Of a stretch of 33,497 nt of DNA, positions 13,271 to 33,497 are shown in pieces. The DNA lies in the sequence record SRR31156797_18266; one strand, given 5' to 3'. Numbering within the stretch: the stretch's first letter is position 1; each line of letters starts with the position of its first letter. The notes under the pieces are model-generated. The model saw only the letters and a list, made by a program, of their open reading frames with translations, did no database searches and was not told the DNA's origin. Position numbers and translations under genes: made by a program.

Positions 13271-13284
13271 TTCCCCCTAATATT

Positions 13285-13719
13285 TTATCGATTCGCCTCG
13301 TAATCGGTTAAATCGACGGTTGGGAATTTGAACAGAACCGAGGTACAGGTCCCTTTGACAATGACATCCAGATTACACGGCAACACTTTGCCGGTCTCAA
13401 TGCCGTATTTTATAAGGAATCTAAGTTTGGGGCGGCTTCCGTTTGTGAGCAGCAGGGGGTGGGTCTTTCCCTTAACCCGTGCATAGGTTTCCCGGGGGGT
13501 ATTTTCGGAATGAAAAAGGAACATCACATCATACCCGTCATCACCTTTTTTTACCGAGACCACCTCCGCCTTGCCTGCATATGATTCATAGCTGCAGGGA
13601 CCCCCCACGACCCGCCCGATTTCCCGGGGTTTCGTTTCCGCACAGGAAGCAACCATCAGAACGACGGAAAAAAACAGGCAGAACCGGTTCAGCACAAACG
13701 CCATGCGTCTTTTTTTCAT
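13285..13719 (-). CDS. Putative lipoprotein of unknown function
   Basis: Basic N-terminus MKKRR, hydrophobic stretch and lipobox VASC; GGAGG SD at ~13730-13734; motifs GGPCSY and KGTCT. Confidence 0.7.
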   Translation of the reverse strand: MKKRRMAFVLNRFCLFFSVVLMVASCAETKPREIGRVVGGPCSYESYAGKAEVVSVKKGDDGYDVMFLFHSENTPRETYARVKGKTHPLLLTNGSRPKLRFLIKYGIETGKVLPCNLDVIVKGTCTSVLFKFPTVDLTDYEANR

Positions 13720-13724
13720 TTGGA

Positions 13725-14978: not shown

Positions 14979-15000
14979 GTTTTATTTGCTCCTGTTTCTC

Positions 15001-16467: not shown

Positions 16468-16480
16468 AACATATCCTCTT

Positions 16481-17488: not shown

Positions 17489-17492
17489 GGTT

Positions 17493-20400: not shown

Positions 20401-20861
20401 GCGGAGACCTTCACGGGCTCCTTGGATGTCACCGGAGTCTCACCGGCGGAGAAGCGTTCACTTTTATTCACCCAGGCATTGATCTCTTCAGGGTGCAAAT
20501 CAATCCATATTGGATCTCCACCCTGTGGCGCTTCAGACATGTGGTTGAGGATTTCAACACCTTCAAACAGGTGTTTTAACCCCGCTTCATCCAGTATAAA
20601 TTCGCCCTTCTCAGCCGCCACAAAAACACTTTTCATGGCCTGAGCAATGGCCACAGCCCTTTCCAGATCAATGATCTGCGCCCCCCCCTTGATGGCCTGA
20701 ATTGCAGGGATCATGGTCTGGAACCTGTCAAGAGCGGTGGGATCGGCCGTGAGCGACTGAAGGCCGTCATGAATGGTCAGTGCATGCCGTTTGACCTCCG
20801 AACGAAAAAGATCCATCATGGCGGAGGTATCACTCTCTTTTTGTTGACTCCCTTCGTTCAC
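17493..20861 (-). CDS. cheA: Hybrid CheA-REC histidine kinase (WspE-like) with three Hpt domains
   Basis: Hpt motifs IQAIKGGA, AAHSLKGA, AAHSIKGG; HLIRNAVDHGIE, DDGRG, FLPGFST, SGRGVGLDVV; CheW domain; C-terminal REC (VVDDS, SDVDMP). Confidence 0.95.
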   Translation of the reverse strand: MNEGSQQKESDTSAMMDLFRSEVKRHALTIHDGLQSLTADPTALDRFQTMIPAIQAIKGGAQIIDLERAVAIAQAMKSVFVAAEKGEFILDEAGLKHLFEGVEILNHMSEAPQGGDPIWIDLHPEEINAWVNKSERFSAGETPVTSKEPVKVSAAETATVSAPFEDTPPPPVEDAPQEDEDMPLDPAMCELFRTETQNHVAILNDGLLALEQNPASSEQLDVMMRAAHSLKGAGRIVGQKGAADIAHAMEDCFVAARKGLINLDSGKADILFQGIDMLNRISEHVGEDGSPWLSSHMKDIGAVRDSIENIVSMDHAAPALDESVHSQPRKASEADQEASDMGAQDQPLEQTGGAFMADPAMLDLFQAEVETHVAVLNDGLLELENNPGATDQLEALMRAAHSIKGGARIVGLDAAVKVAHAMEDCFVAAQKGAVSLGSEQIDVLLQIVDILIHIAESIHDDETDWVSRHGEEIDHLMASITAIIHGDAPIPVSPVEEPSVEETVPVVPSDREREFSLAKAEDIKPVPKETTENATALRNSEELDRTVRVTAAKIERLMGQAGEVVVGAGWLPTFSESLLELKRNHLELLTLLDGLQDTIMRKEKHAQAQELVVRAREKTKACTLQLADRLNQFDIFTGATAALSDRIYHEVISVRMRPFSDGVHGFPRLVRDLARDLGKKVRLEIMGKGTEVDRDILEKLDAPLNHLIRNAVDHGIESPEKRVAAGKPETGLLRLEASHRSGMLMITIRDDGRGIDPETLRRKIVQKKMTTQEMATQMTEAELMEFLFLPGFSTAKNVTEISGRGVGLDVVHNMVHEVGGVVRAVSNLGEGLTFHIELPLTLSVVRTFLVEIAGEPYAFPLARIDRCLELSPSDMDIVEDRQYFRFDNNNIALVDIHNVLELETPLENREKLFVVVLSDRLNAYGLAVDKFLGECDLVVRPLDPRLGKVPDISSVAVMLDGSPVLIFDVEDLVRSIDNLLTGRRLRKLTPSFEAIEAQKLKRILVVDDSFTVREMERKLLESKGYRVDTAVDGVDGWNAVRTGSYDMVISDVDMPRMNGIEFVNQIKRHAELKSIPVIIVSYKDKEEDRLAGLQAGANYYLTKSSFQDDSFIRATVNLIGEA

Positions 20862-21523
20862 TGAAGACTCCTCTTGAGGTTGTAAAACAGCAGTTCATCA
20901 TCAAGCAGGGCCACATGTTTCTCTTCCCATTTGATAATCCCCTTCGTGAAGGTGGATTTGCATTTGGCGATGGTCACGGGAACATTCTGGAGCAGACCGG
21001 GATTAAAGTGATGGATACCATGGATTTCATTGACGGGAAAAACCCATTTTTCGCTATCCTTTGACACCACCATCAGCCGTTTTTTGGCCTTTTCCACCCC
21101 GTATGGTCCGCGGGGCTCATCCTCCAGGTTCATGAGGTTTTTTAAAGAGACACACAGTTGAATTTCGCCGTGCACATTCACAAGACCCAACAAAACAGGG
21201 GTTTTTCGGTGGGGAAGGGTGTGGATGCTGACGTCGTCGATAATCTCCGCAAACAGACCGGCCCCTAGGGCCATCCATTCCGATTCAATACGAAATACAA
21301 CCACCGCAATGGCACCCGCCGGTTCTTCGCCCTTCTTTTTCACAAGGATGCTTCCCCACTCATCCTTGTATTCCTCGGGAAGAGGCCGTTCCAGGAGATT
21401 CCGACCGGCCTGGGTAAACACATCACAATTGCGGCAATGGATCACTTCTTCAAGCCTGGAGCAACGGGGCTCTTCATTTCCCCAAACCCCTATCCGTTTC
21501 CAACATCGATCCCTATTGTCCAT
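20858..21523 (-). CDS. cheW: CheW-family scaffold, WspD-like
   Basis: N-terminal CWKRIGVWG..RC..L...IHCRNC motif characteristic of WspD, then a CheW domain (IHTLPHR..VLLGLVNVHGE). Confidence 0.9.
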   Translation of the reverse strand: MDNRDRCWKRIGVWGNEEPRCSRLEEVIHCRNCDVFTQAGRNLLERPLPEEYKDEWGSILVKKKGEEPAGAIAVVVFRIESEWMALGAGLFAEIIDDVSIHTLPHRKTPVLLGLVNVHGEIQLCVSLKNLMNLEDEPRGPYGVEKAKKRLMVVSKDSEKWVFPVNEIHGIHHFNPGLLQNVPVTIAKCKSTFTKGIIKWEEKHVALLDDELLFYNLKRSLQ

Positions 21524-21548
21524 GGTTTATTCTCGATTGTGCTGTTTC

Positions 21549-22844
21549 TTACGGCGCACGATGCATCGCAGCCCTGCTGATCCGTTGCGCCCGTTGCCGC
21601 AACCGCTCAGCGCCGTTTTCGTTTCCCCGCCGTGATTCAATGAAAGCCAGATGTTTCAACGCTTCCACATGCTCCGGGTTCAGATAGATGGCTTTATTGA
21701 AAAAGGTTTCGGCTTTATTATCATTGTGCAGGGCTTCATGAATCAGCCCCATGAGAAAATGGGCCTCAGCGTGTACCGGGTTTTCACCCAAGAATGCCCG
21801 GCACAATTCAAGGGCTTTGGGTAGTTGCCCCTGATCCGCCATTTCTCGGGCCTCCAGAAATAAATTGACCTCTTCCCGGGACGTGGGCACGCCGGCCTCA
21901 ACCCTGGAACAATTTTGTTGTTCAGACGATTTTCCAGATGGAAAATCAACCGGCATCACGGGTTTTAAAATGGGTTTTATTTTCTTTTTTTGAACCTGCC
22001 GTTTAAACGGCGCCGATTTGGCGACAACCGACGGGCTTTTTTGACTGGATTCCCGGCATCGCTTTCGACACGCAAAAACACCGGGTTCAGGAACTACCTC
22101 AAAACCCCAGTCGATGGCCGTCTGCCGTTCTGCGTGACCGCAGAAAAGGATGCCTGTTTCAGCCAGTAATCGACTCATGGTTTCAAGGATTCTATCCCTT
22201 GCCTCCGGGCTCATATAAATCATTAAATTTCGACAAAAAATAACATCAAATAAAGCACCGGCCCCAAAACAGTTTTTCAGGACGTTGCCGGCCTTGAACC
22301 GTACCTTCTCCCTGACATGATCCAAAAGTTGATACCCATGGTTTTTTGGCTGAAAATGGCGATTCCTGAATTCCAGGTCCTTGCCTCGAAAAGAACCCGA
22401 GCCATATTCTCCGCGCCGTGCTTTTATAAGGGCTTTCTCACTGATATCAATACCATCAATGTGAAAGCGGTCTTTATGGATCCCCGCATCCATGAAAGCC
22501 ATGGCGATTGAATACGGTTCCTCTCCCGTGGAACAGGGGATACTCAACACGTGAAGCATACGGCCTCGATTTTCGGGCAGCCAGGAATCCTTTACAAAAC
22601 GGACCAGATAATTAAATACTTTCCGGTTCCTGAAAAACCAGGTTTCCGGCACCACCACCATTTCAATGAGGTTCTTCCATTCAGCATTTGAATCAAAAAG
22701 GGTTTTTGCATAGATCTCCAGGCTGGTTAACCGGCACCGATCCATTCTCTGCCGGATGGCATTTTCGATCACTTTACGGCCGATGGCGTCTATGTCCAGA
22801 CCGATCTTTTCCTTAAGTAACGATTCAATGATGTTCTGTTTCAT
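21549..22844 (-). CDS. cheR: CheR methyltransferase with C-terminal TPR (WspC-like)
   Basis: VVPETWFFR, SIPCSTGEEPYSIAM, FDVIFCRNLMIY, GHAE; TPR AHFLMGLI..AETFFNKAIYLNPEH. Start taken at ATG 22844. Confidence 0.92.
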   Translation of the reverse strand: MKQNIIESLLKEKIGLDIDAIGRKVIENAIRQRMDRCRLTSLEIYAKTLFDSNAEWKNLIEMVVVPETWFFRNRKVFNYLVRFVKDSWLPENRGRMLHVLSIPCSTGEEPYSIAMAFMDAGIHKDRFHIDGIDISEKALIKARRGEYGSGSFRGKDLEFRNRHFQPKNHGYQLLDHVREKVRFKAGNVLKNCFGAGALFDVIFCRNLMIYMSPEARDRILETMSRLLAETGILFCGHAERQTAIDWGFEVVPEPGVFACRKRCRESSQKSPSVVAKSAPFKRQVQKKKIKPILKPVMPVDFPSGKSSEQQNCSRVEAGVPTSREEVNLFLEAREMADQGQLPKALELCRAFLGENPVHAEAHFLMGLIHEALHNDNKAETFFNKAIYLNPEHVEALKHLAFIESRRGNENGAERLRQRAQRISRAAMHRAP

Positions 22845-23298
22845 GATGAGTGTTTTCAAGGGCCGGTAGAAACTGGAAACTTTCAGGAAGAAGATCCAGA
22901 TCCACATACTGAATCATCTCCTTTTCTTCCATCATGAGGCCGCCCAGATAGGGGGCGTCTTCCATATGCAATCCCGGCGCCATAAAGGCGCTTTTGTCTC
23001 TTCTTGCGGTTTCCGTAACCCGTTCGGCCATGAGTCCCAGGATATAGGGTGTATTATCGTCTTTCACATAGTCCACCAGAATAACGCGCGTACTCATACG
23101 CATCTCACAGGGTTGTCCCTGGATAAGCCGGCGCAGATCGATCACGGGAACAATAACCCCGCGATAGTTGAACAGGCCGGCAACATAGTCCGGCGCGTGA
23201 GGCACCGCTTTTAGTTTTACGATGGGGGCCACTTCGCGTACCCGATCGCATTTCATGGTGTACATGATGTCGCCCAGATAAAACAGCAATACAAGCAT
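22825..23298 (-). CDS. cheW: CheW-family scaffold, WspB-like
   Basis: VPHAPDYVAGLFNYRG.IVPVIDL, STRVILV, GLMAERVTET, APYLG. GGAGG SD before ATG 23298. Confidence 0.9.
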   Translation of the reverse strand: MLVLLFYLGDIMYTMKCDRVREVAPIVKLKAVPHAPDYVAGLFNYRGVIVPVIDLRRLIQGQPCEMRMSTRVILVDYVKDDNTPYILGLMAERVTETARRDKSAFMAPGLHMEDAPYLGGLMMEEKEMIQYVDLDLLPESFQFLPALENTHHETEHH

Positions 23299-23308
23299 AT
23301 CCCTCCTC

Positions 23309-24961
23309 TTAACCAACCTTAAAGCGGCTCACTTCATCCTGCAAACCCCTTGCCGCCTCATTGAGTTGTTCAATGGCGGAATAGGATTCATGGAGTGATT
23401 CCATGGTTTGTTGCATTTCCTCGCTTAAATTAATGATGGCCGTATTGATTTCCATGGCGTTATCGGACTGCTGCGCCATGGATACATTCACATTTTCAAA
23501 ACTGGGTGACAGGGCCTGGACCTGTTCGATGATCCTGGCCAGTTGGGTACTGATCCTCCCCACATCTTCCGCGCTCCGCTTGACCTCTCCAATAAATTTA
23601 TCCATCTCCATGACGCCGGCGGAAACCGCCGACTGCATTTCCTGGACCATCTGTTCAATATCCAGTGTGGCAACGGCCGTCTGGTCCGCCAATCGTCGGA
23701 TTTCCCGGGCCACCACATTGAACCCGCGACCATATTCACCGGCCTTCTCAGCTTCAATGGCCGCATTGAGCGACAGCAGGTTGGTCTGGTCGGCCACCTT
23801 GGTGATGGTAACCACCACAGTGGTGATATTTTCCGCCTTTTCATTAATGGTTTCCAACCGGCCCGAAATGGATTTGGAAGCGGATTCCATATTGTGCATG
23901 GCCGCTTCCATTCGACCCAGATCCGACTGCCCTTTTGTGGCGAAACCGGCGGTTTCCTGGCTCATGGCGGCCACCTGGTCCATGGTTTTCACCAGTTCAT
24001 TGGACACTTCGGATATTTCCTCAACGGACGCCACCACTTTGTTGGTGGATGCCAGTTGAGTACCCATGGTCGCTTCCTGCTCCCTGGCGGTGGCGGCCAG
24101 TTCCGTGGACGATGACGTCACCTGGATGCCGGACCGCTGAACCTGCCCCAGAACCATTCGAAAGGATGACGCCATCTCGTTAATGGCGTTGAGCAGGGCC
24201 CCCACTTCATCCTTTCGCTTGGTGTCGATGGTTACCGCAAGATCAAAATCCGATAGCTGATGGGCAATTTTTGATACATTTTTAAGGGGTTTTAAAACCA
24301 GTGCCCGCAGGAAAAATATCAGGGAAACCACCAGCACCACCAGGATAAGAAATACCCCGATGCTCTGGCTGACAATGGCATTCTCCAGTTGGGACCGCGA
24401 ATTGGCCTCAAACTTGTCCGCATCCAGGAATGCCTCTTTTTTAAGGGTTTGAATTTTTCGTTTCAGAACCGCATCCGAGTAAAAAATTTTGAAAACACCG
24501 ATTTTTTTCTCTCCCCGCAGGCATTCCACCTGGGAAGATAGGGTTTTGTTGAGGTCCAGATCTTCGGGAAGGGCGTTACCGATTTCCACATGGGGGTTTC
24601 GCCATGCGGCTGCAAAGGGCTTTCCACGCTCATCCAGCACACGAATGGCCACAACTTGCTCGTAATTCATGAAGGGCCTGAGGGACTGCTTGAGTCCCTC
24701 CCGATCCAGATTATACAAATAGGCGGCCCCGATGCCGTTTAAAATTTGAGTGCTGAAGTTAACCCTTTGTTTCAGGGAATGCTTTTCCTCCATCTCCCGG
24801 TCGTTGATAAGCTCATGGTAACCCCTTAGGATTTCATCCGTAAAAGTATCCACCATCTTAATCTCAAACCGGATTAGAATATATCCCCCCAGCAACACCA
24901 GAAGACACACGATACCGGATGTTGATGCCACGATTTTTGTGACGATGCTCCAGTTTTTCAT
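23309..24961 (-). CDS. Methyl-accepting chemotaxis protein (WspA-like signalling domain), MCP-1
   Basis: Two TM helices, HAMP (KDEVGALL.AINEM), ADQTNLLSLNAAIEAEKAGEYGRGF.VVAREIRRLADQTA. Confidence 0.95.
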   Translation of the reverse strand: MKNWSIVTKIVASTSGIVCLLVLLGGYILIRFEIKMVDTFTDEILRGYHELINDREMEEKHSLKQRVNFSTQILNGIGAAYLYNLDREGLKQSLRPFMNYEQVVAIRVLDERGKPFAAAWRNPHVEIGNALPEDLDLNKTLSSQVECLRGEKKIGVFKIFYSDAVLKRKIQTLKKEAFLDADKFEANSRSQLENAIVSQSIGVFLILVVLVVSLIFFLRALVLKPLKNVSKIAHQLSDFDLAVTIDTKRKDEVGALLNAINEMASSFRMVLGQVQRSGIQVTSSSTELAATAREQEATMGTQLASTNKVVASVEEISEVSNELVKTMDQVAAMSQETAGFATKGQSDLGRMEAAMHNMESASKSISGRLETINEKAENITTVVVTITKVADQTNLLSLNAAIEAEKAGEYGRGFNVVAREIRRLADQTAVATLDIEQMVQEMQSAVSAGVMEMDKFIGEVKRSAEDVGRISTQLARIIEQVQALSPSFENVNVSMAQQSDNAMEINTAIINLSEEMQQTMESLHESYSAIEQLNEAARGLQDEVSRFKVG

Positions 24962-24976
24962 TGCCGCCTCATTTGA

Positions 24977-25729
24977 TTATTTTAAAATATATTTCTTGAT
25001 AATGTCATCATAACGCCCGCTACTGCGCAACTGTTTCAAGCCATCATTAAAATCATCCCGAACCTTTTTGTCAACAAATCCCACGCGAAAGGGGACTTTC
25101 GGGAAAATAAACCACATATCGATGGGTTGCGTTGTATCCACCATTTCATTGCGGTTTCGATGATGAAAAAAAATATTTTTATCCAGAACAATGACGTCCA
25201 CACGATCCCCATAGAGCAGATTGATCTGAAGTTGCTGTTTACTGATTTCACGATAATCGGGAGACGCCTCCGCCGCCGCTTTAAATTCTTTGCCCAGGTA
25301 CTTTTTGGCATCTTGGAAGGTCAGGATGCTTTTGTCTTTGAGATCACCGATTTTCTCAATTTTGAAATCGTTTTTTTTCAAACTGACCGCCACATTTTCA
25401 CAGGCAATGTGCTGATCGGATAAAAAAACATCGATATCTGAATTTTCATTGACGGTCAGCACCCCGTCCACTTCCCCTTCAACGATTTCCCGAATTCTGC
25501 GGGCAAAAGGCACATATTTGGTCTTGATCCGGTACCCTTTCATCTCCAGCGCTTCACGCACGATATCCATTTCAATACCGCAATTTTTCTCCGGGATATT
25601 GTAAGGGGCCAGGGCCAGACCCACGGCAAAGGTCAACTCCTTGGGTTCAGCGTGGGATGGGGGGCACGGCAGTGCTCCCGTCATCAGGATCATCAAAAAC
25701 ACTTGGAAGGTTTTTACCGGAATTCTCAT
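24977..25729 (-). CDS. Periplasmic solute-binding protein, family 3 (amino acid-type), within the chemoreceptor cluster
   Basis: Signal peptide, LAPY..GIEMDIVREAL, VPFAR, RVDVIVLD, FNDGLKQLRSSGRYDDIIKKY. Confidence 0.88.
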   Translation of the reverse strand: MRIPVKTFQVFLMILMTGALPCPPSHAEPKELTFAVGLALAPYNIPEKNCGIEMDIVREALEMKGYRIKTKYVPFARRIREIVEGEVDGVLTVNENSDIDVFLSDQHIACENVAVSLKKNDFKIEKIGDLKDKSILTFQDAKKYLGKEFKAAAEASPDYREISKQQLQINLLYGDRVDVIVLDKNIFFHHRNRNEMVDTTQPIDMWFIFPKVPFRVGFVDKKVRDDFNDGLKQLRSSGRYDDIIKKYILK

Positions 25730-25747
25730 GGAAAGTCCTGCCTCATC

Positions 25748-27955
25748 TTAGCCATCAATGGCCTCATGCCGCCCATCGCTTACTTTGAAATGTGACACTT
25801 CCTGCTGCAACCCCCTCGCCGCTTCGTTCAACTGCTCGATGGCTGAAAAGGTCTCTCTCAGGGATTCGGCGGTGGAACGAATCTCCCCACTGAGTCCGGC
25901 AACGGCATGATTGGCTTTGTTGGCATTTTCAGACTGGTGGCCCATGGCCACGTTAACTTCATCAAAACTGGGGGAAAGGGCCTGAACCTGTTCAATGATC
26001 CGCCCCAACTGGCCGCTGATTTTCCCCACATCTTCAGCGCTCTGTTTTACATCGGCTATAAATTTATCCATCTCCATGACGCCCGCGGACACTGCGGACT
26101 GCATACCTGCCACCATCTGCTCGATATCAAGGGTCGCAACAGCCGTCTGATCCGCCAACCTTCGAATTTCCCGTGCCACAACATTGAACCCGCGACCGTA
26201 TTCACCCGCTTTCTCAGCTTCAATGGCTGCATTGAGGGACAGCAGGTTGGTCTGATCCGCCACTTTGGTGATGGTGGTCACCACATTGGTGATATTTTCG
26301 GCCTTTTCGTTGATGGTCTCCAGTCGACCCGATATGGATTTGGAAGCGGATTCCATATGATGCATGGCATCTTCCATGCGGGCCAGATCGGTCTGGCCTT
26401 TACTGGCAAATCCGGCGGTTTCCTGAGATCTTGCGGCCACCTGCTGCATGGTGGCCTCCAGTTCGGTCGCCACACTGGAGATTTCCGCCGCAGCCTGACT
26501 CACGCGGTTAGTGGCCTCCCCCTGCTGGTTCATTGCCGTCTGCTGTTGCTTGGCAGTGGCTGCCAGTTCTGTCGTCGAAGCGGTTACTTGAATGCCGGAT
26601 CGCTGAACCTGCCCGACCAATCCGTTAAGGCTTTCGGTCATTCCCTTGATGGAAATCAATAATGTACCGGTTTCATCATCCGGGGAACCGATTCGATCCG
26701 CTTTGTCGCCTTTCACCATTGCATTTACGGCATCCGCTGCCGCTCCAAGGTTACCTTTGGCGATCTCCCCCGCAATATCCGTGATCTGAGTGATCCGTTT
26801 GGTAAATTTGTTGCCGAAGAAAAGGGCCAGACCCACAATGGGAATCAAAATCAGGACTCCGCTCATGAGCAAAACCCAGAGCATCTGGGTCATGGCGGTT
26901 TCCACGTTGTTTTTGACATCGTGATAATCGTCTTCATAGGTTCCGGCCCCGATCACCCAGTCCCAGGGTTCAAAATAGGTCAGCGCCACCACTTTCCATC
27001 GGGGCTCCCCGTCCCCCGTATTTTTCCAGGCATACCGATCATGACCCACTTGGTTTTTTTTCAGTTTAACGGCTTTTTCCACGATGGACCGGATGTAATA
27101 GCGACCGTCCGTGGACCTGGAATCCCATAGATTTTCACCATCCCGCTTCCCCCCTTTTGAAATGATGTAATGCCCGCGATGAAAGGCGTTTTTACCTCCC
27201 AGCACATAAACGTACCCGCTCTTGCCGACTTTCATATCCATAATGGCCTGTCGCAACGATGCGGGCGCCTGGAAAGGGGCTTCGGTAAAGAGCATCCCGA
27301 TAATACGACCGTTTTTATCGGCGATTCCCTTGCAGGCGGTGAAATGCCAGCCATCGGCAAGATCGGCAATGCCATGGAAGACCCGGTTTTTAAGGATATG
27401 CTGAATGACCGGATTGGCAACCCCCTTTTGTTTGGCCGGAAGATAAAGATTTCGGAGCTTCCGGCCCTTTTTGGACAAAAGGGTTGTGGCGATCAACACC
27501 ATATCGCCCGCTTCATTGACCCTTTGAAACAGGCCGTAATTTCCACCGAATTTTTCCCGGATCACATCAATATAGGTCTCAGGCTCGAAAACCTCTGCAA
27601 TCATCATTTTGGGAATGGAGATGTTCTTTTCTTTATGATTTCGGTAATTTATGGATTTTATGGAAACGGTTTCAGATGACAGGGAAAAACCGCCCATGTC
27701 TTGAAAAAAAGCGTCCGAATCCTGCAGGCGAAGATTCAGGTATTTCTGTACCATCTTGCTGGTGGCCTCACAGGTATTGTAGACCGCAAGGGCAAGATGT
27801 TCAATGTTTTCACGGGCGAGAACATCCAGCTCCCCTTCAATCTTTTCAGTGACGCTTTTTTTCTGGACGGATGTGAGCACCAGCATCACCAGAACCGGCA
27901 GCACTGCTGCCAACACAGGCAAGCCGATCACTTTCTGTTTCAACGATAATTTCAT
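25748..27955 (-). CDS. Methyl-accepting chemotaxis protein with tandem Cache (Cache_3-Cache_2-like) sensor, MCP-2
   Basis: LFQRVNEAGDMV.IATT, VGKSGYVYVL, YFEPWDWVIGAGTY, HAMP, MCP signalling domain. Confidence 0.94.
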   Translation of the reverse strand: MKLSLKQKVIGLPVLAAVLPVLVMLVLTSVQKKSVTEKIEGELDVLARENIEHLALAVYNTCEATSKMVQKYLNLRLQDSDAFFQDMGGFSLSSETVSIKSINYRNHKEKNISIPKMMIAEVFEPETYIDVIREKFGGNYGLFQRVNEAGDMVLIATTLLSKKGRKLRNLYLPAKQKGVANPVIQHILKNRVFHGIADLADGWHFTACKGIADKNGRIIGMLFTEAPFQAPASLRQAIMDMKVGKSGYVYVLGGKNAFHRGHYIISKGGKRDGENLWDSRSTDGRYYIRSIVEKAVKLKKNQVGHDRYAWKNTGDGEPRWKVVALTYFEPWDWVIGAGTYEDDYHDVKNNVETAMTQMLWVLLMSGVLILIPIVGLALFFGNKFTKRITQITDIAGEIAKGNLGAAADAVNAMVKGDKADRIGSPDDETGTLLISIKGMTESLNGLVGQVQRSGIQVTASTTELAATAKQQQTAMNQQGEATNRVSQAAAEISSVATELEATMQQVAARSQETAGFASKGQTDLARMEDAMHHMESASKSISGRLETINEKAENITNVVTTITKVADQTNLLSLNAAIEAEKAGEYGRGFNVVAREIRRLADQTAVATLDIEQMVAGMQSAVSAGVMEMDKFIADVKQSAEDVGKISGQLGRIIEQVQALSPSFDEVNVAMGHQSENANKANHAVAGLSGEIRSTAESLRETFSAIEQLNEAARGLQQEVSHFKVSDGRHEAIDG

Positions 27956-27973
27956 GTCTGATCCATTATTTAT

Positions 27974-30034
27974 TTAAACCACCTCAAAACGGGAAACCTG
28001 TTCCTGCAGCCCGAGAGCCGCTTCGTTGAGATCTTCCGCCGCCAATTTGAATTCCCTAAGGGATTCCAATGTATTCTGGGTTGCTGAATTCAAATTTTCC
28101 ATGGTCTCGCTGATCTGGCCCGCACTTCTGGACTGATCCACCATCCCCTTGCTCACCGCCTCGAAATCGGGCGGAAGGGTCCGCACTTTTTCCATAATAC
28201 CGCCCAATTGGCCGCCGATATCCTTCATTTTACGGGCCGTGGATTGAACAACCCCGCTAAACGCTTCCATTTCAGAAGCCCCTGTGGATACGGATTTTTC
28301 CATCTCCATAACCATGTCTTCGATATCCAGGGCCGCCACCGCGGTCTGGTCCGCCAATCGTCTGATTTCATTGGCCACCACTGAAAAACCTAAGCCATAT
28401 TCCCCCGCTTTCTCCGCTTCAATGGCGGCATTCAAACTCAGCAGGTTGGTCTGATCCGCCACCCTTGTGATGGTGACCACAATGGAGCTGATGACATGGG
28501 CATTTTTTTTCATGGCCGCAAGCTTACCTGAAACCGATGCCGTCCCTTTCAGGACCTCCTGCATGGAAGCTTCCATGCCCATGAGACCCGCCTGGCCGGC
28601 CTCGGCCAGCTCAGCCGTTTCGGTTGTGGCCCATGATACGTCATCCACGGTACCGGCAAGTTGTTCCGCCGTTTTGGAAATCAGTTTTGACGAAGCACTC
28701 ACCTGGCTTGTGGATGCCGCCTGCTGGTTCATGGTCGCTTCCAATCCCCTGGAAGAGGCGGCGATCTCAGTGGAAGACGCCGTCACCTGGTTGCCGGACT
28801 GCTGGATCTGGCCAAGCAATGCATTGAGTTTTTCAGCCATGCTTTGAAACGCCCCGAAGAGCAGACCGGTTTCATCCCTGCTGGAAGAAAATCTTCCATG
28901 AAGCGTGTCCAGGGTTTTTTTGGCATCAATGAGCTTCCCTTGGGCAATTTCCCGTGCCACATGGGTCAAATTGCTGATGGGATTGCAGATACGTCTTACC
29001 GTGAAAAAAGCGATCACCAGGAATAGCAAAATCTGAAAGGCAATCACCGCGACGGATGTAAGCATGTTGGCATGGTTGAGTTCGTTGATCCTGGCAAACA
29101 GCTCCTTTTGGGGGGCCAGTATCCCCAGTACCATTCCGGTCTCCGTAAGGGTATAGAAGAGTGAAAAAGCTTCGCCCTTCAGGGTCAATGTCTTCACCAG
29201 TATGTCCCCGGGCCTTATGCCTCCGGCATTTGATATGGCATCACCCCACGCAAGGGTTTCCAGCTTCTGCAGAACCTTCATGGGATTTCCCGGAAATGAA
29301 ATCAACAGTCGGCTGGAGATATCCGCTGCAAAGGGAAGGGAGTTGGGCGTAACCGTCATTTTTGACACCATTGCCTTGAGGTTTTCCAGGGTGAAGTCAA
29401 CAGTGGAAATACCGACAATGCGGCCCTTGGAATCATACATCAACGCATCTACGGTAATCATGAGGGCCGTGGTGGCGGCCATATCAAAATAGGGATCCGT
29501 CCAGTAAATATTGAGCGGCCTTTTCAGGTTCCGATCCCATTCTTCCGGAATCGCCAACCGGTACCAATTCTGATTGTGGTAGTCGTACGCAGGCGTGTTG
29601 AGATCCCAGGTAAACAATACCTGATTATTTTTTCTAAAGGCGTAAGGACCGAAACGTTCCTTGTTGTGAAAAAGCGCATTGGGCTCATACCAGAGACCAC
29701 CGCCGATGGCCTCTGACAGTTTCTTAAAATTGTTCAGCAGGTAACCCTCAATCTGTGGGGTAATATCTTGACCCGTTTCATGAACAATGGCAAAAAAGGC
29801 CTCCCCCGCCGTGGCCAGGTCAACGGCATTCTTTTCCATCACCAACATGGCGGCTTCAATCCGCTCGGCGTTGAGTCCGACCATGGCCCGGATATGTTCT
29901 TCCGTTTCAACCCGTAGATTTTTCCCGATGACCCGTGCGTTCTGAATCAACAGAATGCATCCCAGAAGAGAGGAGAAGGTAATGATGGCCACCATGAAAA
30001 GGATGTTCTGTTTAAGGGTTATCCGCACATTCAA
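27974..30034 (-). CDS. Methyl-accepting chemotaxis protein with dCache-like sensor, MCP-3
   Basis: GGGLWYEP, FGPYA, YDY...WY, YWTDPYFD, VGISTVD, HAMP, MCP signalling domain. Start codon uncertain (TTG/GTG). Confidence 0.93.
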   Translation of the reverse strand: MNVRITLKQNILFMVAIITFSSLLGCILLIQNARVIGKNLRVETEEHIRAMVGLNAERIEAAMLVMEKNAVDLATAGEAFFAIVHETGQDITPQIEGYLLNNFKKLSEAIGGGLWYEPNALFHNKERFGPYAFRKNNQVLFTWDLNTPAYDYHNQNWYRLAIPEEWDRNLKRPLNIYWTDPYFDMAATTALMITVDALMYDSKGRIVGISTVDFTLENLKAMVSKMTVTPNSLPFAADISSRLLISFPGNPMKVLQKLETLAWGDAISNAGGIRPGDILVKTLTLKGEAFSLFYTLTETGMVLGILAPQKELFARINELNHANMLTSVAVIAFQILLFLVIAFFTVRRICNPISNLTHVAREIAQGKLIDAKKTLDTLHGRFSSSRDETGLLFGAFQSMAEKLNALLGQIQQSGNQVTASSTEIAASSRGLEATMNQQAASTSQVSASSKLISKTAEQLAGTVDDVSWATTETAELAEAGQAGLMGMEASMQEVLKGTASVSGKLAAMKKNAHVISSIVVTITRVADQTNLLSLNAAIEAEKAGEYGLGFSVVANEIRRLADQTAVAALDIEDMVMEMEKSVSTGASEMEAFSGVVQSTARKMKDIGGQLGGIMEKVRTLPPDFEAVSKGMVDQSRSAGQISETMENLNSATQNTLESLREFKLAAEDLNEAALGLQEQVSRFEVV

Positions 30035-30306: not shown

Positions 30307-30669
30307 ATGGATAAATCTGAAAAAAAGGCGACAAATAATCGAACTGAACCGCGGACGCTTCTGGATCAATACACCAGCGTGGAATTTTCCTTGAATAAAC
30401 AAGACCCCATCTTTCAATTCCGGGTTCGGGATATATCCCCCTCCGGAATGGGGGTTCTTGTCAACGAAGGGTCAATGGCATTGAAATATCTGAAGGTCGG
30501 GCAGATTCTGAACATGAAATATAACCCGGCGAACCCTGACGGCTCGCCTGAACAGATGGAAACGGAAATCAGGCACATCACCCACCTGGACAAAGGCCGT
30601 TACAGGGGCCATTATCTGGTGGGACTGTTAATCATCACCGGGTCCACAGGTAAACTCAAAGAAGCTTAA
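30307..30669 (+). CDS. PilZ domain protein (putative c-di-GMP receptor)
   Basis: RxxxR (RTEPR) and DxSxxG (DISPSG) motifs; beta-barrel end IRHIT..YLVGL. Confidence 0.8.
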   Translation: MDKSEKKATNNRTEPRTLLDQYTSVEFSLNKQDPIFQFRVRDISPSGMGVLVNEGSMALKYLKVGQILNMKYNPANPDGSPEQMETEIRHITHLDKGRYRGHYLVGLLIITGSTGKLKEA

Positions 30670-30922: not shown

Positions 30923-31087
30923 TCATCGCAGGGCAGGCACGTCATGCTGGATGGAATTAAGTATCATGTCCCCGGAATTCACAGCACCGATGAACAACAT
31001 AGCTCGGTCACGTGGTATAAGCCAATACTTGTCGCCAAGTTTCTGTTCAATACCGGTATAGAGCTTTTTGAATTCGTCCTGTTCCAT
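30923..31087 (-). pseudogene. Truncated cassette ORF (54 aa, MEQDEFKKLYTGIEQKLGDKYWLIPRDRAMLFIGAV...)
   Basis: Below the ORF-track cutoff. ATG 31087 with an AAGG SD follows the attC1 crossover; the frame runs into the 30954-30980 motif and stops; no intact attC downstream. Confidence 0.55.
30954..30980. mobile_element. Short terminal/REP-like motif GAATTAAGTATCATGTCCCCGGAATTC
   Basis: Resembles, from memory, the TTAAGTAT..TGTCCCCGGAATT motif that flanks Y1/RAYT-like (IS200-related) transposase genes. No transposase in the window. Confidence 0.4.
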
Positions 31088-31119: not shown

Positions 31120-31249
31120 GTTTAACGGTTGAGCTGAGGGGCCGGGCGTTTAACCTGGAGCCTTCAGATAAAAATTTTCGTTTTCCTAAACCACACACTT
31201 CCAAAAAGGTGCGCAGTACGCCCGGTCCCACTCCAGCGATGGGTTAGGC
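31120..31249 (-). mobile_element. attC: Integron attC site 1 (130 bp)
   Basis: Minus strand R'' GCCTAAC (contains the methyltransferase TAA stop) to R' GTTAAAC. Plus (bottom) strand folds as GCT-GAG-GGG-CCGGGCGT with ACGCCCGG-t-CCC-a-CTC-c-AGC, leaving extrahelical bases. Confidence 0.88.
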
Positions 31250-32140
31250 AATTCCACTGATTATCAGAACGATCTCAATTGAGTAATCCCAAACAGATAC
31301 ACCTTTTTCAACAAACAAGAAACGTTTAGAGTATCGTTGATTTATTAATTCTTTTAAGTCTTTTATATGGTTTTTAGAAAGCTTATTTTTTAATAGTGGA
31401 AGCATCCTTTCAATATTCTCTATTTCCTCGTTTTTGTAGCTTTCTAATATAGCAGCCTTTTGATCAAGGCTGTTTCTATAATTATCCGGAACCACCGGGA
31501 GTGCCAATGCATCAACCTGAATATCAGAAAAACCCAATTTCTCAAATAACGCTGGCAAGTCATACAATTCAGGGTTATATTTCCCCACCATGCTTTCGGC
31601 ATGAAGTGATTTTTGCAATTCGACAATAGGAGCCCAAAGTTCATGTTCACGCTCCGAAACTTGGGGAATAATATCGGGATTGGAACGAATAGAGCTTTTA
31701 GGTTGTGCCATCATGACTGACACTCTGCCACCACTACGACAAACACGTTTTTGTTCAGTTAGAAACTCACGGTTTGGCACATGCTCTATTACAGTGTGAG
31801 AGATAACGGCATCGAGATAATTGTCTACCAGAGGTAATGAAAGAACATCGCTTTCTAAGAATTTAAGATTTTTAAGAGATGCTTTTTGTGCCTTACCCTT
31901 AGCATATTCAATAAATGCTGTGTCACGATCGATCCCTATTATACACGAAGAGTCACCAAGCCAAGTCGCTATTTTTCGTGTAAGCGAACCTGGCCCACAA
32001 CCTGCGTCTAATACGCTCATTCCGGGAATCAACCCTAAAGCATTGAGGACCATTTCTTTGCGATCGTCACGGAACCGCCACTTGCGGCTTTGATCAAGGC
32101 ACATTATTCCTTGTATTTTACTTGAATATGAACAATTCAC
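31244..32140 (-). CDS. Class I SAM-dependent methyltransferase, integron gene cassette
   Basis: VLDAGCGPG, IIGID, DAVISHTVIEHV, RVCRSGG. AT-rich. The cassette begins G/TTAGGC and ends GCCTAAC (exact complements). GTG start uncertain. Confidence 0.9.
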   Translation of the reverse strand: MNCSYSSKIQGIMCLDQSRKWRFRDDRKEMVLNALGLIPGMSVLDAGCGPGSLTRKIATWLGDSSCIIGIDRDTAFIEYAKGKAQKASLKNLKFLESDVLSLPLVDNYLDAVISHTVIEHVPNREFLTEQKRVCRSGGRVSVMMAQPKSSIRSNPDIIPQVSEREHELWAPIVELQKSLHAESMVGKYNPELYDLPALFEKLGFSDIQVDALALPVVPDNYRNSLDQKAAILESYKNEEIENIERMLPLLKNKLSKNHIKDLKELINQRYSKRFLFVEKGVSVWDYSIEIVLIISGIA

Positions 32141-32156
32141 TATTATAATTCTAGTT

Positions 32157-32281
32157 GCCTAACTGTAAGATCACCCGCGGGATTTAAAAAAGATAAAGTA
32201 AAAAATAGCTACGAACCATTTAGGAGCAGTGCGTAAAGAGAACCACGCGATAATCCCGTCGGGTGAATTTTGTGGTTATAA
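32157..32281 (-). mobile_element. attC: Integron attC site 2 (125 bp)
   Basis: Minus strand R'' TTATAAC, 8 bp after the kinase stop, to R' GTTAGGC. Plus strand TCACCCG-CGGGATT pairs with AATCCCG-t-CGGGTGA, plus a bulged A. Confidence 0.87.
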
Positions 32282-32289
32282 ATTCATTG

Positions 32290-33417
32290 TCAAAAAGGAA
32301 TATCATCGTCTAAATCAGAACTGCTTGTGAAACGGTCTATTGCATCTAGCCGATTGTACAGATTATTAATAATAATTTTTTGCTTTTCTTTTGGATTCTT
32401 TTTAAGGAGATCAATGAAGTTCTTTAACCATGAAACATAGATAGTTTTCTCCTTATAATATCGATACTCACCAGAAACAAAACACCGCGTTAGCTCTACA
32501 GAATTTTGTACAGCTTCTTCTAGTAAATTCTTTTTATATAAGGTTTCTAATTTATGAATTAATTGGTCAATATCTATGACATATTGTGCATTGGATTCGA
32601 TTTTTGAAAAAAGCGGAACGAAGCTATCTGCAAACCTTTGGTATGTTTGAATCTCAGGATCAGAAAAATCTATTGTTATATTTTCTTGATTCAATAACGC
32701 TCTATTTATATCATTAAACGATTTGATGCGATCCTTCTTTTCAAACTTTATCATTTGGTTCAGGATTTCTTTGTAGGCAAACACTTCAATCTCATTATCT
32801 AATATGGCCTTTTCAAATAACTTTCCCACAAAATAAATCTCCGTCGAATGATCATATTTATTCTCTGAAAAATCATCGGGGAGGTCGCACCACCAATTCA
32901 GGCTGATACTTTTATTAAAATCCTTACTGAAAGCCACTTTTTTGCCGAACCCAAAATCAATAATTTTCGCTTTTTCGTTTGAATCTACAAGAATGTTCTG
33001 TGGCCTAATATCTCTGTGAAGTATTTTAATCGATTCTAGATACCTAAAACCTTCTATTACCTGAACAAATATTTCATTAATCGACTCTGGCCGGGCATGA
33101 AGAAATTTATCAAGATTATTACCTTCAATAAATTCCATCAAAATATAGCCTGTAAATCTTTCAGGATATAAATAGTAGTTAAAAACTCTCACAATATTTG
33201 CGTGAGATACCAAATGTAATATTTTTATCTCCTGAATAAAATTTTTAAAGAAATCCTCTTTTAATTCCGGGTAGTACGGCTCATATTTCTTACAAACAAA
33301 AAGAGTATCTATGGTTTCGTCTTTCAAAAGAACAGTCTTTCCAAAACCACCTTGGCTGATTTCCTTGATAAATACATAATCTTTTTGGCGAATGAATTTA
33401 ATTACTTCATTTTCCAT
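32290..33417 (-). CDS. Ser/Thr (Hanks-type) protein kinase with a C-terminal domain ending in an SSB-like acidic tail, integron gene cassette
   Basis: QGGFGKTV, VCKK, alphaC FIQEI, HANIV, ILMEFIEG, HRDIRPQNIL, IIDFGFG; ends DLDDDIPF. Start moved to ATG 33417 (GGAG SD) because the upstream extension lies in attC3. Confidence 0.92.
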   Translation of the reverse strand: MENEVIKFIRQKDYVFIKEISQGGFGKTVLLKDETIDTLFVCKKYEPYYPELKEDFFKNFIQEIKILHLVSHANIVRVFNYYLYPERFTGYILMEFIEGNNLDKFLHARPESINEIFVQVIEGFRYLESIKILHRDIRPQNILVDSNEKAKIIDFGFGKKVAFSKDFNKSISLNWWCDLPDDFSENKYDHSTEIYFVGKLFEKAILDNEIEVFAYKEILNQMIKFEKKDRIKSFNDINRALLNQENITIDFSDPEIQTYQRFADSFVPLFSKIESNAQYVIDIDQLIHKLETLYKKNLLEEAVQNSVELTRCFVSGEYRYYKEKTIYVSWLKNFIDLLKKNPKEKQKIIINNLYNRLDAIDRFTSSSDLDDDIPF

Positions 33418-33432
33418 TAAATTTCTCCAAAC

Positions 33433-33497
33433 AACCAACGTGGCCTTCACCGGTGGCAATGTAGCGTAGCGGAATTGCCATCCGAGTGCAAGGCATG
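33433..33497 (-). mobile_element. attC: Integron attC site 3 (short type; R'' cut off by the window edge)
   Basis: R' GTTGGTT on the minus strand (33439-33433). Plus strand GCCTT-CAC-CGG-TGGCAAT pairs with ATTGCCA-t-CCG-a-GTG-c-AAGGC. Confidence 0.8.

Follow-up and report, generated by a model that had tools for sequence, protein, structure and literature searches.

Why does a protein kinase end in what looks like the C-terminal tip of SSB? The question is raised by a gene (P0001) at 32290..33417 on the minus strand of a 33,497-nt stretch of DNA (sequence record SRR31156797_18266; the whole stretch is called the window here), which ends at 33497, 80 nt upstream of the gene. The open reading frame comprises 375 codons and a stop, running from an ATG at 33415-33417 to a TGA at 32290-32292. 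GGAGA lies 7 nt 5' of the ATG, and the N-termini of aligned homologues agree with this start. The 375-aa translation has the C-terminus ...RFTSSSDLDDDIPF. The initial annotation had divided the protein into a kinase, a non-kinase domain of ~110 aa, a short Ser linker and the tail DLDDDIPF at 32293-32316, and each of these parts was recovered: the reading frame ends as described, with the tail at these positions, the non-kinase domain occupies about residues 250-362, and SSS precedes the tail.

The predicted product is an intact Hanks-type Ser/Thr kinase with all catalytic residues in place. We delimited the kinase domain (residues ~14-245; 32683..33378, minus strand) using Pfam, invariant alignment columns, AF2 and Foldseek. 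The Pfam family Pkinase (PF00069) matches residues 14-210 with an E-value of 5.2e-32 and 111.7 bits against a cut-off of 31.7. The Gly-rich loop reads GGFGKT (residues 23-28), and K43, E63, H134-R135-D136, N141 and D154-F-G are unchanged across an alignment of 28 diverse members. The full-length AF2 model (mean pLDDT 82.6) has a bilobal kinase fold, whose top Foldseek matches are PknB of S. aureus and M. tuberculosis and GCN2 (E about 1e-13; structures 4eqm for PknB, with E 5.7e-14, 3orm and 1zyd). The activation loop (157-170) was modelled with low confidence and is followed by the invariant S170. P0001 shares with PknB and GCN2 an RD kinase domain with a flexible activation loop but, unlike PknB, PKR and GCN2, has no PASTA, dsRNA-binding or tRNA-synthetase-like sensor, and its only recognisable recruiting element is the 8-residue peptide at its end.

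Between the kinase domain and the tail lies an alpha/beta domain (residues ~250-362; 32332..32670, minus strand) for which AF2, Foldseek and profile searches gave no family or fold match. Modelled alone, it reached a pLDDT of 87.9. The best Foldseek match in PDB had an E-value of 1.6 with TM 0.2-0.3, from which the fold could not be named, and the same search showed no resemblance to known SSB-Ct-binding folds. A sequence profile search against PDB returned nothing below E 0.17, and no match was detected in Pfam, PHROG or the ESM Atlas. In a search for fused forms longer than 657 aa that contain the C-terminal part, none of 1,020 candidates gave a score, which is weak evidence of absence. The domain may supply a second specificity or regulatory contact. 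It is followed by a short flexible linker (FTSSS; 32317..32331, minus strand), recognised from alignment columns 374-384 and from the low pLDDT that begins at residue 368; its length and sequence vary across the kinase family in these columns, while the tail is conserved.

The tail itself (DLDDDIPF-COOH; 32293..32316, minus strand) appears to be a copy of the SSB C-terminal tip, as judged from the reading frame, the ends of homologues and the comparison with host SSBs. Like SSB-Ct it consists of an acidic run and then [ILV]-P-F at a free C-terminus, after a disordered linker. The conserved SSB-Ct is the hexapeptide DDDIPF, onto which partners dock, as set out in PMC5872125 and PMC10164576. The carrier differs from SSB in that it lacks the OB fold (P0001 has no SSB (PF00436) or OB match in Pfam at E up to 1) and bears one tail per chain, as against four per SSB tetramer; its gene is accessory and mobile, whereas ssb is essential. 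In the full-length AF2 model, residues 368-375 have a pLDDT below 50. Both the full-length and the domain-only model leave the tail unplaced (pLDDT below 50-57), which fits a free tail and says nothing on its ligand.

An [ILV]PF end is present in all 121 sequences compared (the query and 120 listed homologues with 48-78% identity), at 80 of 80 genomic loci of homologues, and in 114 of the 150 top-ranking representatives of clusters at 50% identity, with identities to the query as low as ~33%; most of the 36 representatives without it look like fragments. The three full-length relatives on viral contigs have the tail as well. Among the 1,212 other ORFs called in the same 80 loci, none ends in [ILVMF]PF. 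We also searched 15 host genomes for DDIPF followed by a stop and obtained 28 occurrences, made up of 15 SSB genes and 13 kinase genes and nothing else, while a reversed control pattern gave one match in these genomes. As a sequence feature, the SSB-like tail of the kinase is not due to chance.

In 73 of 75 genomes, the I, L or V of the kinase tail is the residue found in the SSB of the host (L/L 37, I/I 31, V/V 5), although two large clades contribute most of this agreement; the comparison leaves out five of the 80 genomes, which yielded no SSB with a PF end. Of the host SSBs, one ends in DLPY and another in NLP. On average, 5.48 of the last eight residues are identical between kinase and host SSB, often seven or eight, so that over the last 6-8 residues the tail is identical or nearly identical to that of the host SSB. 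Some tails are wholly identical (NFDDDIPF, EMDDDIPF and SGMDDVPF), and others have long stretches in common with the SSB (LDDEIPF, FTDDIPF and PVDDLPF). Proteobacterial copies such as L009, L029 and L074 end in DFDDDIPF, the SSB tip of E. coli. The two mismatches are a kinase with I against a host L on a 1.7-kb contig of a Fluviicola MAG (L008) and a kinase with I against a host V in a Desulfocapsa MAG (L044). The SSB-tail mimicry proposed in the initial annotation, which had asked whether homologues conserve a terminal D-D-I/L-P-F, is therefore supported family-wide, and the tail is in addition matched to the host.

Copying of ssb DNA is a poor explanation of this match. Only 206 of 411 identical tail residues are encoded by the same codon in the kinase gene and the host ssb, and the 30 nt downstream of the two genes are unrelated (8.4 of 30 matching). 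Because synonymous codons differ and the downstream sequences are unrelated, the match is kept at the protein level, and gene conversion from ssb was rejected as the source of the tail for most pairs. The exception is L061, with 26 of 27 nt identical, where gene conversion may be the source. In a tree built without the tail, switches of the tail follow the host within kinase clades: a Chlorobiota kinase ending in LPF is sister to a Planctomycetota kinase ending in IPF, and VPF is found twice in Desulfovibrionia and, alongside IPF, in Acidobacteria. On starred branches, the tail tracks the host in five of five independent pairs (sign test p 0.0625), a small number of contrasts. Judged from these comparisons, the tail changes in step with the SSB tail of the host in which the kinase gene resides. 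For the window, SSB ends were read from relatives, not from the host: the genome nearest by the CheB of the window (66% identity) has EEDIPF, and the next four have DDDVPF, DDDIPF, EDDVPF and EDDIPF. The nearest genome belongs to the phylum of the Syntrophaceae MAG of L056, a rough placement of the host.

The kinase family, with at least 2,665 members, comprises 215 clusters at 50% identity (E up to 1e-30). A pattern scan, which gives a lower bound, placed relatives in at least 375 of 185,579 species genomes from more than ten phyla. In two bacterial families, a profile of the C-terminal domain matched one genome of 201 and two of 199, starting genomes included. Identical kinases are carried by Phocaeicola and Bacteroides, and the tail-free tree indicates transfer of the gene across phyla. 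The kinase gene stands alone, is horizontally mobile and is very patchy in its distribution. We considered that the family could be mainly phage- or plasmid-borne and rejected this: tblastn of 72,556 plasmid records gave no match at E 1e-20, phage records gave only partial kinase-domain matches of at most 31% identity, and IMG/VR contained three full-length relatives in 2.9 million viral contigs.

In the window, the kinase gene has as neighbours a cassette that encodes a methyltransferase and a cluster of chemotaxis genes, and the GC content of the cassette region is 30-40%, compared with ~50% in the core. Inverted repeat I9, DNA folds and arm alignment place a 125-nt attC-like site behind the kinase gene (32157..32281, minus strand). 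It opens 8 nt past the stop with TTATAAC, a degenerate R''-like box (4/7 to the consensus partner), and closes with the canonical R' GTTAGGC; its arms pair with bulged bases (alignment score 5.5), and the DNA fold z values are -3.0 and -2.5. The next ORF, in the same orientation, encodes a class I SAM-dependent methyltransferase of 298 aa (31244..32140, minus strand; Pfam Methyltransf_31/25/11, with no NCBIfam model at or above its cut-off) and is context, not a part of the kinase. It has an attC-like site of its own, again recognised by repeat, fold and arm alignment (130 nt; 31120..31249, minus strand), whose canonical R'' GCCTAAC overlaps the stop codon and which ends in the canonical R' GTTAAAC. 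The arms GCTGGAGTGGGACCGGGCG and CGCCCGGCCCCTCAGC pair; fold z values are only -0.45 and -0.85, and the arm score is 3.5.

This arrangement resembles integron cassettes that carry anti-phage systems, in which each compact co-oriented ORF has behind it an imperfect palindrome bounded by RYYYAAC- and GTTRRRY-type cores, 57-141 nt apart in attC sites, and the AT-rich array adjoins core genes. Within the window, which ends 80 nt upstream of the kinase gene, no intI or attI was seen. The arrangement differs in the degenerate R'' of the kinase site (TTATAAC) and in that 77 of the 80 homologues lie outside cassettes recognisable to a crude detector. This detector flagged three of 80 homologue loci, compared with 11 of 1,600 shuffles, and is a blunt instrument that scores the sites of the window at just 5.5 and 3.5, so that 3/80 is a floor. 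In the window, the two attC-like sites support the description of the gene as a putative integron cassette, a setting that is rare among homologues. Many sedentary-integron cassettes encode defence systems (10.1101/2024.07.02.601686), according to a preprint whose main text contains neither the word 'kinase' nor 'SSB'.

Does the kinase belong to a known defence system? The best PADLOC match of the kinase domain is mad6 (2.1e-34), and many PD-T4-6 models also match (E 5.6e-26 and weaker). The best of the latter, PDLC04047, aligns residues 11-157 with profile positions 9-157 of 327, and the others behave alike; they cover the N-lobe and catalytic loop only, none matches at full length, and the kinase C-lobe, the C-terminal domain and the tail fall outside the match. 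The NCBIfam equivalog for MAD6 gave 70.9 bits, where its cut-off is 460. The MADS kinase MAD6 is a protein of about 610-660 aa in a multi-gene methylation-associated system, whereas the kinase described here stands alone; no MADS multi-gene locus surrounds it, and mad2 matches occur in two of 143 homologue neighbours. Matches with scores this far under the cut-offs, and with no reach beyond the N-lobe and catalytic loop, do not show a defence function. Stk2 and PD-T4-6, single-gene Ser/Thr-kinase defence candidates, are likewise stand-alone Hanks-type kinases of 300-500 aa.

Fusions and some neighbours are of the kinds seen in conflict genes. Three of ten long forms scanned have an N-terminal AbiJ_NTD5 fusion, and two of ten have an N-terminal DnaG CHC2 zinc ribbon. 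The 143 immediate neighbours include Shedu SduA (4), Schlafen/AlbA_2 (5), AbiJ_NTD4 (2) and Fic (2). They matched 173 PADLOC models, compared with 73 for 143 ORFs at least 7 kb away, an enrichment obtained with a crude ORF caller and by counting redundant PADLOC models. Housekeeping neighbours are also present (BipA, GatB and urocanase), and copies in gut Bacteroidales lie near DUF3945 and DUF4099 genes, presumably conjugative-transposon genes. Clustering of neighbours gave no conserved partner gene, the largest family being present at no more than six of about 64 loci, and we rejected the idea of a two-gene system on this basis. The initial annotation had looked to defence islands or cassette arrays as the surroundings of homologues: defence-type genes often lie beside them, and the crude detector flagged cassettes at three of 80 loci. 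The proposed anti-phage defence role, the most likely one for the kinase, is drawn from the likeness to PD-T4-6 and MAD6, the AbiJ_NTD5 fusions, the patchiness and the neighbours. That its biological role lies in defence or conflict is modestly more probable than not.

PknB, PKR and GCN2 are activated by back-to-back dimerisation of their N-lobes. We predicted a homodimer of P0001 and obtained a score of 0.45, compared with 0.00 for the best of three controls; among proteins of solved structure, 21 of 30 that form pairs of one chain come up to the mark for a dimer, as do 0 of 23 single-chain proteins. Contacts agree by at least 91% between runs, with a partner pLDDT of at least 79. The predicted interface joins N-lobe to N-lobe (residues 2-17, 31, 35-38, 42, 61-73, 77-84, 91 and 95), and the symmetric dimer runs via the N-terminal strand, the alpha-C helix and the N-lobe sheet, using neither the tail nor the C-terminal domain. 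The interface resembles solved PknB- and PKR-type dimers, so that the pass may reflect the memory of the model; compared with these kinases, the dimer of P0001 is a prediction only.

As the best overall explanation we propose a stand-alone mobile kinase with a host-matched SSB tip that acts as a single-gene abortive-infection or anti-mobile-element defence, with a probability of roughly 0.5. The part of this proposal in which we have most confidence is that the tail would bind SSB-tip pockets, which is quite probable. By docking where the SSB tip normally binds, the tail would place the kinase on the proteins that have such pockets. Candidate pockets are those of host replication, repair and recombination enzymes and those of invader proteins that exploit host SSB, for example phage RecT/Red-beta-type annealases; the function of phage RecT needs the C-terminal 7 residues of host SSB, according to PMC13490951. 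As an RD kinase whose activation loop is disordered, the kinase would be a low-activity monomer at rest. Oligomeric proteins of the invader that bind the tail could gather several kinase molecules, whose N-lobes would then pair in the back-to-back manner of PknB and PKR, and the kinases would autophosphorylate. Phosphorylation of the bound protein and of replication proteins nearby would follow, and this would halt the replication of invader DNA and perhaps that of the cell. The specific step in which clustering is the trigger is tentative and may well not be how the kinase is activated.

A bolder form of the proposal is a bacterial 'integrated decoy', in which an immune kinase displays a host-matched SSB tip, the peptide that phages and plasmids must grasp if they are to use the replication and recombination hub of the host. 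Oligomeric binders would bring about N-lobe dimerisation and PKR-like autophosphorylation of the kinase, and phosphorylation would then shut replication down. We regard this form as doubtful. Possible triggers would be annealases of the RecT, Red-beta or Erf type or phage helicase loaders, the primase zinc ribbon fused in some members could serve as a second replisome decoy, and an invader would escape only by abandoning the use of host SSB.

Bait for invader proteins and steering to SSB partners, the two alternatives of the initial annotation, both agree with these results. Other readings of the tail place it differently. It could be an autoinhibitory pseudo-ligand, held in cis or in trans by the C-terminal domain so that the kinase is off until exposed tails of host SSB displace it; the trigger would then be a large amount of ssDNA-bound SSB with free tails, arising from phage or plasmid replication or from DNA damage. 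This would account both for the tail having to equal that of the host SSB and for the well-folded domain that always lies beside it, and SSB-bound ssDNA and phage SSBs are described as defence triggers in work on DARNA, Retron-Eco8, DRT4 and Hna. However, neither AF2 model docks the tail on the C-terminal domain (pLDDT below 50-57), the predicted dimer involves neither of them, and the domain is unlike any known SSB-Ct-binding fold in Foldseek. We consider autoinhibition decidedly unlikely. A regulator of DNA metabolism is also improbable: as an accessory factor, the kinase would be steered by its tail to SSB partners at forks or gaps, for example under stress, and phosphorylation would tune replication restart, recombination or repair. 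The host-matched tail would suit such a regulator, as would the housekeeping genes among the neighbours and the primase-type CHC2 zinc ribbon of some members, which suggests an association with ssDNA or the replisome. The extreme patchiness of the gene (1/201 and 2/199 genomes, and at least 375 relatives in 185,579 species genomes) speaks against this, as do cross-phylum transfer and identical copies in different genera; conflict genes typically show such a cassette context, AbiJ_NTD5 fusions and neighbours of defence type.

Conflict need not mean defence of the host. The kinase could be a toxin-like or inter-element weapon that poisons replication and recombination proteins of plasmids, ICEs and phages entering as SSB-coated ssDNA, or it could keep its own element or cassette array stable. 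Such a role would agree with a mobile gene found in a putative integron cassette in the window and, in gut Bacteroidales, near DUF3945/DUF4099 genes of presumed conjugative transposons. No conserved neighbour is available to serve as an antitoxin, though, and relatives are missing from 72,556 plasmid records (tblastn, E 1e-20) and limited to three full-length sequences in 2.9 million viral contigs, and we consider this role a long shot. Finally, short C-terminal motifs can have several readers, and the [ILV]PF end could be a signal that has nothing to do with SSB, for instance a degron or a motif for sorting or clamp binding, with the likeness a coincidence. This is very hard to reconcile with a tail that co-varies with host SSB, including the rare VPF and DDEIPF forms and identities over 7-8 residues, and with the finding that DDIPF-stop in 15 genomes marks only the kinase and SSB genes; we give it almost no weight.

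A literature search that covered mainly open-access papers found no kinase with an SSB tail, in agreement with the initial annotation, which knew of no characterised kinase of this architecture. The SSB C-terminal tip is a universal docking handle of bacterial genome maintenance that has so far been seen as a property of SSB only, and the kinase family would be the first enzyme to hijack this handle by short-motif mimicry. With this tip, its members can probably join the network of proteins that replicate and repair DNA. Matched pairs of tail and kinase would be natural reagents for mapping the readers of the SSB tip by phosphoproteomics, and the SSB-like tail could be used as a portable tag to send any enzyme to the SSB interactome. 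If the family is immune in function, its logic would be simple and testable, with invaders sensed or hit through an unavoidable host hub, in parallel to the integrated decoys of plants and to PKR-type activation by proximity, and the tail could account in part for why phage recombinases are host-specific. Even if it is not, the family would reveal an unrecognised phosphorylation input into replication and repair.

The kinase gene lies on the minus strand, from an ATG at 33415-33417 to a TGA at 32290-32292, with GGAGA 7 nt ahead of the ATG. Its 375-residue product (P0001) ends in ...DRFTSSSDLDDDIPF, and the eight-residue tail (32293-32316) sits where the initial annotation had placed it. The ATG, rather than an upstream TTG, agrees with homologue N-termini in the alignment. 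The Pfam protein kinase domain spans residues 14-210 (E 5.2e-32), with a complete catalytic set (GGFGKT loop, K43, E63, H134-R135-D136, N141, and D154-F-G) that is invariant in an alignment of 28 diverse relatives. The protein belongs to the Hanks kinase superfamily and is, by its sequence, a competent RD-type kinase. An AlphaFold2 model on the family alignment reached a mean pLDDT of 82.6, with values below 50 in the activation loop (157-170) and the final eight residues; the closest solved folds were Staphylococcus aureus PknB, Mycobacterium tuberculosis PknB and GCN2 (E ~1e-13). Residues ~250-362 form a distinct alpha/beta domain (pLDDT 87.9 when modelled alone) for which Pfam, PHROGs, PDB sequences and the ESM Atlas gave no match and Foldseek against the PDB a best E of 1.6. 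The linker ahead of the tail differs in length and sequence across the family, and P374 and F375 are invariant in the 28-member alignment. The tail reads as a free, disordered copy of the SSB tip (the C-terminal docking peptide of bacterial SSB).

Against 5.8 billion proteins the query had 2,665 matches, of which the best 120 (367-399 aa, 48-78% identity, source names from many phyla) were examined. Conservation of the terminal motif among homologues, a point raised in the initial annotation, was confirmed: [ILV]PF terminates all 121 sequences, query included (DIPF 48, DLPF 41, DVPF 11, EIPF 9, and ten others), many of the 120 ending in DFDDDIPF. An exhaustive HMMER search covered 1.84 billion cluster representatives, 215 of them matching with E up to 1e-30; the best 150 extend down to ~33% identity, and 114 of these end in [ILVMF]PF, while the other 36 are mostly short or match part of the query, a few with near-miss ends (IPY, LPFN, LPFT, LPFY, TPF, IQF). 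Scanning 185,579 species, each represented by a single genome, for a sequence pattern yielded 469 candidate stretches, of which 375 were confirmed as relatives. At the best 80 of these loci every kinase carries the motif (LPF 42, IPF 33, VPF 5); of the 1,212 further ORFs called there, 0 end in [ILVMF]PF.

The SSB family (PF00436) is present in the genomes behind all 80 loci, with a readable PF-ending SSB in 75, to which the comparison applies. The residue before PF is identical in kinase and host SSB in 73 of these 75 (L/L 37, I/I 31, V/V 5). The mismatches are L008, on a 1.7-kb contig of a Fluviicola MAG (kinase I, host L), and L044, on a Desulfocapsa MAG contig (kinase I, host V). Among the five genomes outside the comparison, SSB frames end in DLPY (one), in NLP (one) or are short or end otherwise (three). 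The SSB of G072 (locus L214) ends in ...GHDLPY and that of G065 (locus L181) in ...EGNLP, and the kinases there keep ...DDLPF; these SSB ends may reflect genuine variation, paralogues or faulty assembly. Many Bacteroidota carriers (e.g. genomes G013, G021, G022, G048 and G068) encode several short SSB paralogues (105-125 aa) with ...ELLMLGK-like ends and no acidic tail, alongside one canonical tail-bearing SSB.

Over the last eight residues, kinase and host SSB share a mean of 5.48 identities. The full octapeptide is common to both at L022 (NFDDDIPF), L047 (EMDDDIPF) and L059 (SGMDDVPF), and unusual tails are shared at L025 (LDDEIPF), L016 (FTDDIPF), L077 (PVDDLPF) and L061 (YDF.DIPF). At positions -8 to -4, own-host identity was 2.51 versus 2.14 +/- 0.07 after shuffling hosts within the I/L/V class, a control that leaves relatedness in; 0 of 10,000 shuffles reached the observed value. 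A quick IQ-TREE phylogeny of the kinases (LG+G4, last 12 residues excluded) shows an LPF clade rich in Bacteroidota and a mixed IPF clade; inheritance therefore accounts for much of the agreement. Inside these clades the tail switches with the host: a Chlorobiota copy (kinase and host LPF) is the starred sister of a Planctomycetota copy (kinase and host IPF), Zixibacteria and one unclassified MAG carry LPF within the IPF clade, VPF occurs in Desulfovibrionia at two separate places, both VPF and IPF occur in Acidobacteria, each equal to its own host, and Spirochaetota and the window copy carry IPF within the LPF-rich clade. The whole tree holds eight changes; five independent I versus non-I pairs on starred branches all run in the same direction (sign test p 0.0625, where at least six pairs are needed to pass 0.05 and independent contrasts are few). 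The same codon is used at only 206 of 411 identical tail residues, and the 30 nt past the stop are unrelated between kinase and ssb (8.4/30 identical), so the match is kept by selection on the peptide rather than by copying of ssb DNA. L061 may be an exception, since 26 of 27 nt are identical between its kinase and ssb tails.

The PADLOC mad6 model matches the kinase at 2.1e-34 and many PD-T4-6 models also match (best 5.6e-26), but these alignments are limited to residues ~10-165; against NCBIfam MAD6 the kinase scores 70.9 bits versus a cut-off of 460, and no NCBIfam model comes near its own cut-off. The kinase fails full-length tests for PD-T4-6 and MAD6 membership; nor is it an SSB protein. 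The literature describes several SSB-sensing defence systems (DARNA, Retron-Eco8, DRT4, DRT10 and Hna), and a preprint describes a phage SSB-like protein ending in DDIPF (10.64898/2026.10.27.754916). Full-text searches found no kinase or other defence enzyme with an SSB tip, in line with the initial annotation, which knew of no characterised kinase of such architecture. The words "kinase" and "SSB" are both absent from the main text of an integron "biobank" preprint, whose supplementary tables could list such cassettes.

Positions 1-30,400 of the window (GC ~50%) encode a chemotaxis and transport region (MCPs, CheA, CheW, CheR, CheB, response regulators), and GC drops to 30-40% from ~31,000 on. 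The chemosensory cluster (13725-30034, minus) includes three MCPs (dCache, Cache_3-Cache_2 and HAMP types), a solute-binding protein, CheR with TPR repeats, CheW, CheB, a 1,122-aa CheA with Hpt domains and a receiver, a receiver-guanylate/adenylate cyclase (15001-16467, minus) and a receiver-SpoIIE phosphatase (13725-14978, minus). After the kinase stop lies a 125-nt attC-like element (32157-32281, minus; TTATAAC start, canonical GTTAGGC end) whose arms CACAAAATTCACCCGACGGG and CCCGCGGGTGATCTTACA form a bulged pairing (fold z -3.0, -2.5). The next ORF, a class I methyltransferase (31244-32140, minus), is followed by a 130-nt element (31120-31249, minus) running from GCCTAAC over the stop to GTTAAAC, with pairing arms and weak fold z (-0.45, -0.85). 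Given these two attC-like sites, the kinase gene most likely belongs to a chromosomal integron as one of its cassettes; the window ends before the integrase side. The initial annotation's cassette assignment is supported for the window and less so for the family: with a crude detector, a site lay just downstream at only 3 of the 80 homologous loci (vs 11 of 1,600 shuffles), with flanking sites at L021 and L016, so cassette carriage seems occasional, the count being a floor. The methyltransferase cassette is followed by a 54-aa ORF (30923-31087, minus) without a family match or a detected attC-like site after it, and a PilZ-domain ORF (30307-30669, plus) is the apparent array end against the core genome. 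Between the kinase start and the window end, 80 nt (33420-33497) contain ...GCCACGTTGGTTGTTTGG..., with a non-canonical GTT core. They could represent the 3' arm of an attC belonging to the cassette before the kinase, the other arm of which would lie beyond the window.

In 15 host genomes (~75 Mb), DDIPF-stop occurs 28 times, 15 of them in SSB genes and 13 in the kinase, versus one match to the reversed pattern. In the closest genome found for the window by CheB (66% identity) SSB ends in EEDIPF, with DDDVPF, DDDIPF, EDDVPF and EDDIPF in the next four, which fits the IPF of the window tail but is no proof of a match. Many genome-maintenance proteins dock on the SSB tip (PMC5872125, PMC10164576), and RecT-type phage annealases are reported to need a host SSB whose C-terminus is compatible (PMC13490951); from this we infer recruitment of the kinase to proteins reading the SSB tip. 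Less favoured readings make the tail an autoinhibitory pseudo-ligand, the kinase sensing exposed SSB tails, or a C-terminal signal unrelated to SSB; others cast the kinase as a non-immune regulator of DNA metabolism or as an inter-element weapon. Structure prediction supports homodimer pairing, at the level of a model: the score was 0.45 versus 0.00 for the best of three controls, a mark reached in calibration by 21 of 30 proteins solved as one-chain pairs and 0 of 23 solved as single chains, with at least 91% contact agreement between runs and partner pLDDT of at least 79. The predicted contact is N-lobe to N-lobe (residues 2-17, 31, 35-38, 42, 61-73, 77-84, 91 and 95), and the tail is absent from it. 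PknB and PKR are activated by back-to-back dimers, and the predicted dimer resembles theirs, so the pass may reflect the model's memory. We favour activation by proximity, in which an invader's oligomeric tip-binding proteins would gather kinase molecules; these would phosphorylate first themselves and afterwards proteins of replication or recombination.

Among the 143 of 152 immediate neighbours of homologues that were scanned (nine longer than 800 aa omitted), recurrent families were Schlafen/AlbA_2 with HATPase_c_4 (5), Shedu SduA (4), AbiJ_NTD4, Fic, PDC-S04 and Aga SIR2 (2 each); ordinary genes (BipA, GatB, urocanase) also adjoin homologues. At E 1e-5, 173 PADLOC models matched these neighbours versus 73 for 143 control ORFs (drawn from the 270 lying 7 kb or farther off, with no more than three from any of 52 loci), none of the 73 more than once; the neighbour count is rough, resting on ORF calling and redundant models. 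The gene stands alone: clustering six genes on each side found no family at more than 6 of ~64 loci. Directly downstream of the tail-bearing kinase, L029 (Gallionella MAG; 12582-13862, 426 aa) and L059 (Desulfovibrio MAG; 11188-13038, 616 aa) carry a second, distinct HRD-type kinase gene without an SSB-like tail. Ten family members of 460-500 aa with an added N-terminal domain were scanned: three have AbiJ_NTD5 (P0140, P0206, P0242), two a DnaG primase CHC2 zinc ribbon (P0128, P0134), and five gave no Pfam match there. AbiJ_NTD5 is named after an abortive-infection protein, and all five forms with either domain keep the SSB-like tail, behind the kinase and C-terminal domains.

The gene has a very patchy distribution: searching with a profile built from the C-terminal domain and tail recovered it in 1 of 201 genomes sampled from the family of a Bacteroides carrier, namely the carrier, and in 2 of 199 from that of a Burkholderia carrier. 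It also moves between hosts, with identical copies in Phocaeicola and Bacteroides and nearly identical ones in Phocaeicola and Muribaculaceae. It is not plasmid-borne (tblastn of 72,556 plasmid records, nothing at E 1e-20) and hardly phage-borne, with only partial kinase-domain matches in phage records and three full-length relatives in IMG/VR, all with the tail. Gut Bacteroidales copies (L064, L066, L075, L076, L079) are identical or nearly so across Phocaeicola, Bacteroides, Muribaculaceae and Alistipes and share a ~590-aa upstream neighbour, with DUF3945 and DUF4099 genes nearby, which suggests recent spread on a conjugative element. We read the family as a probable single-gene kinase conflict system in which the means of recruitment, mimicry of the host's SSB tip, is new and well supported.
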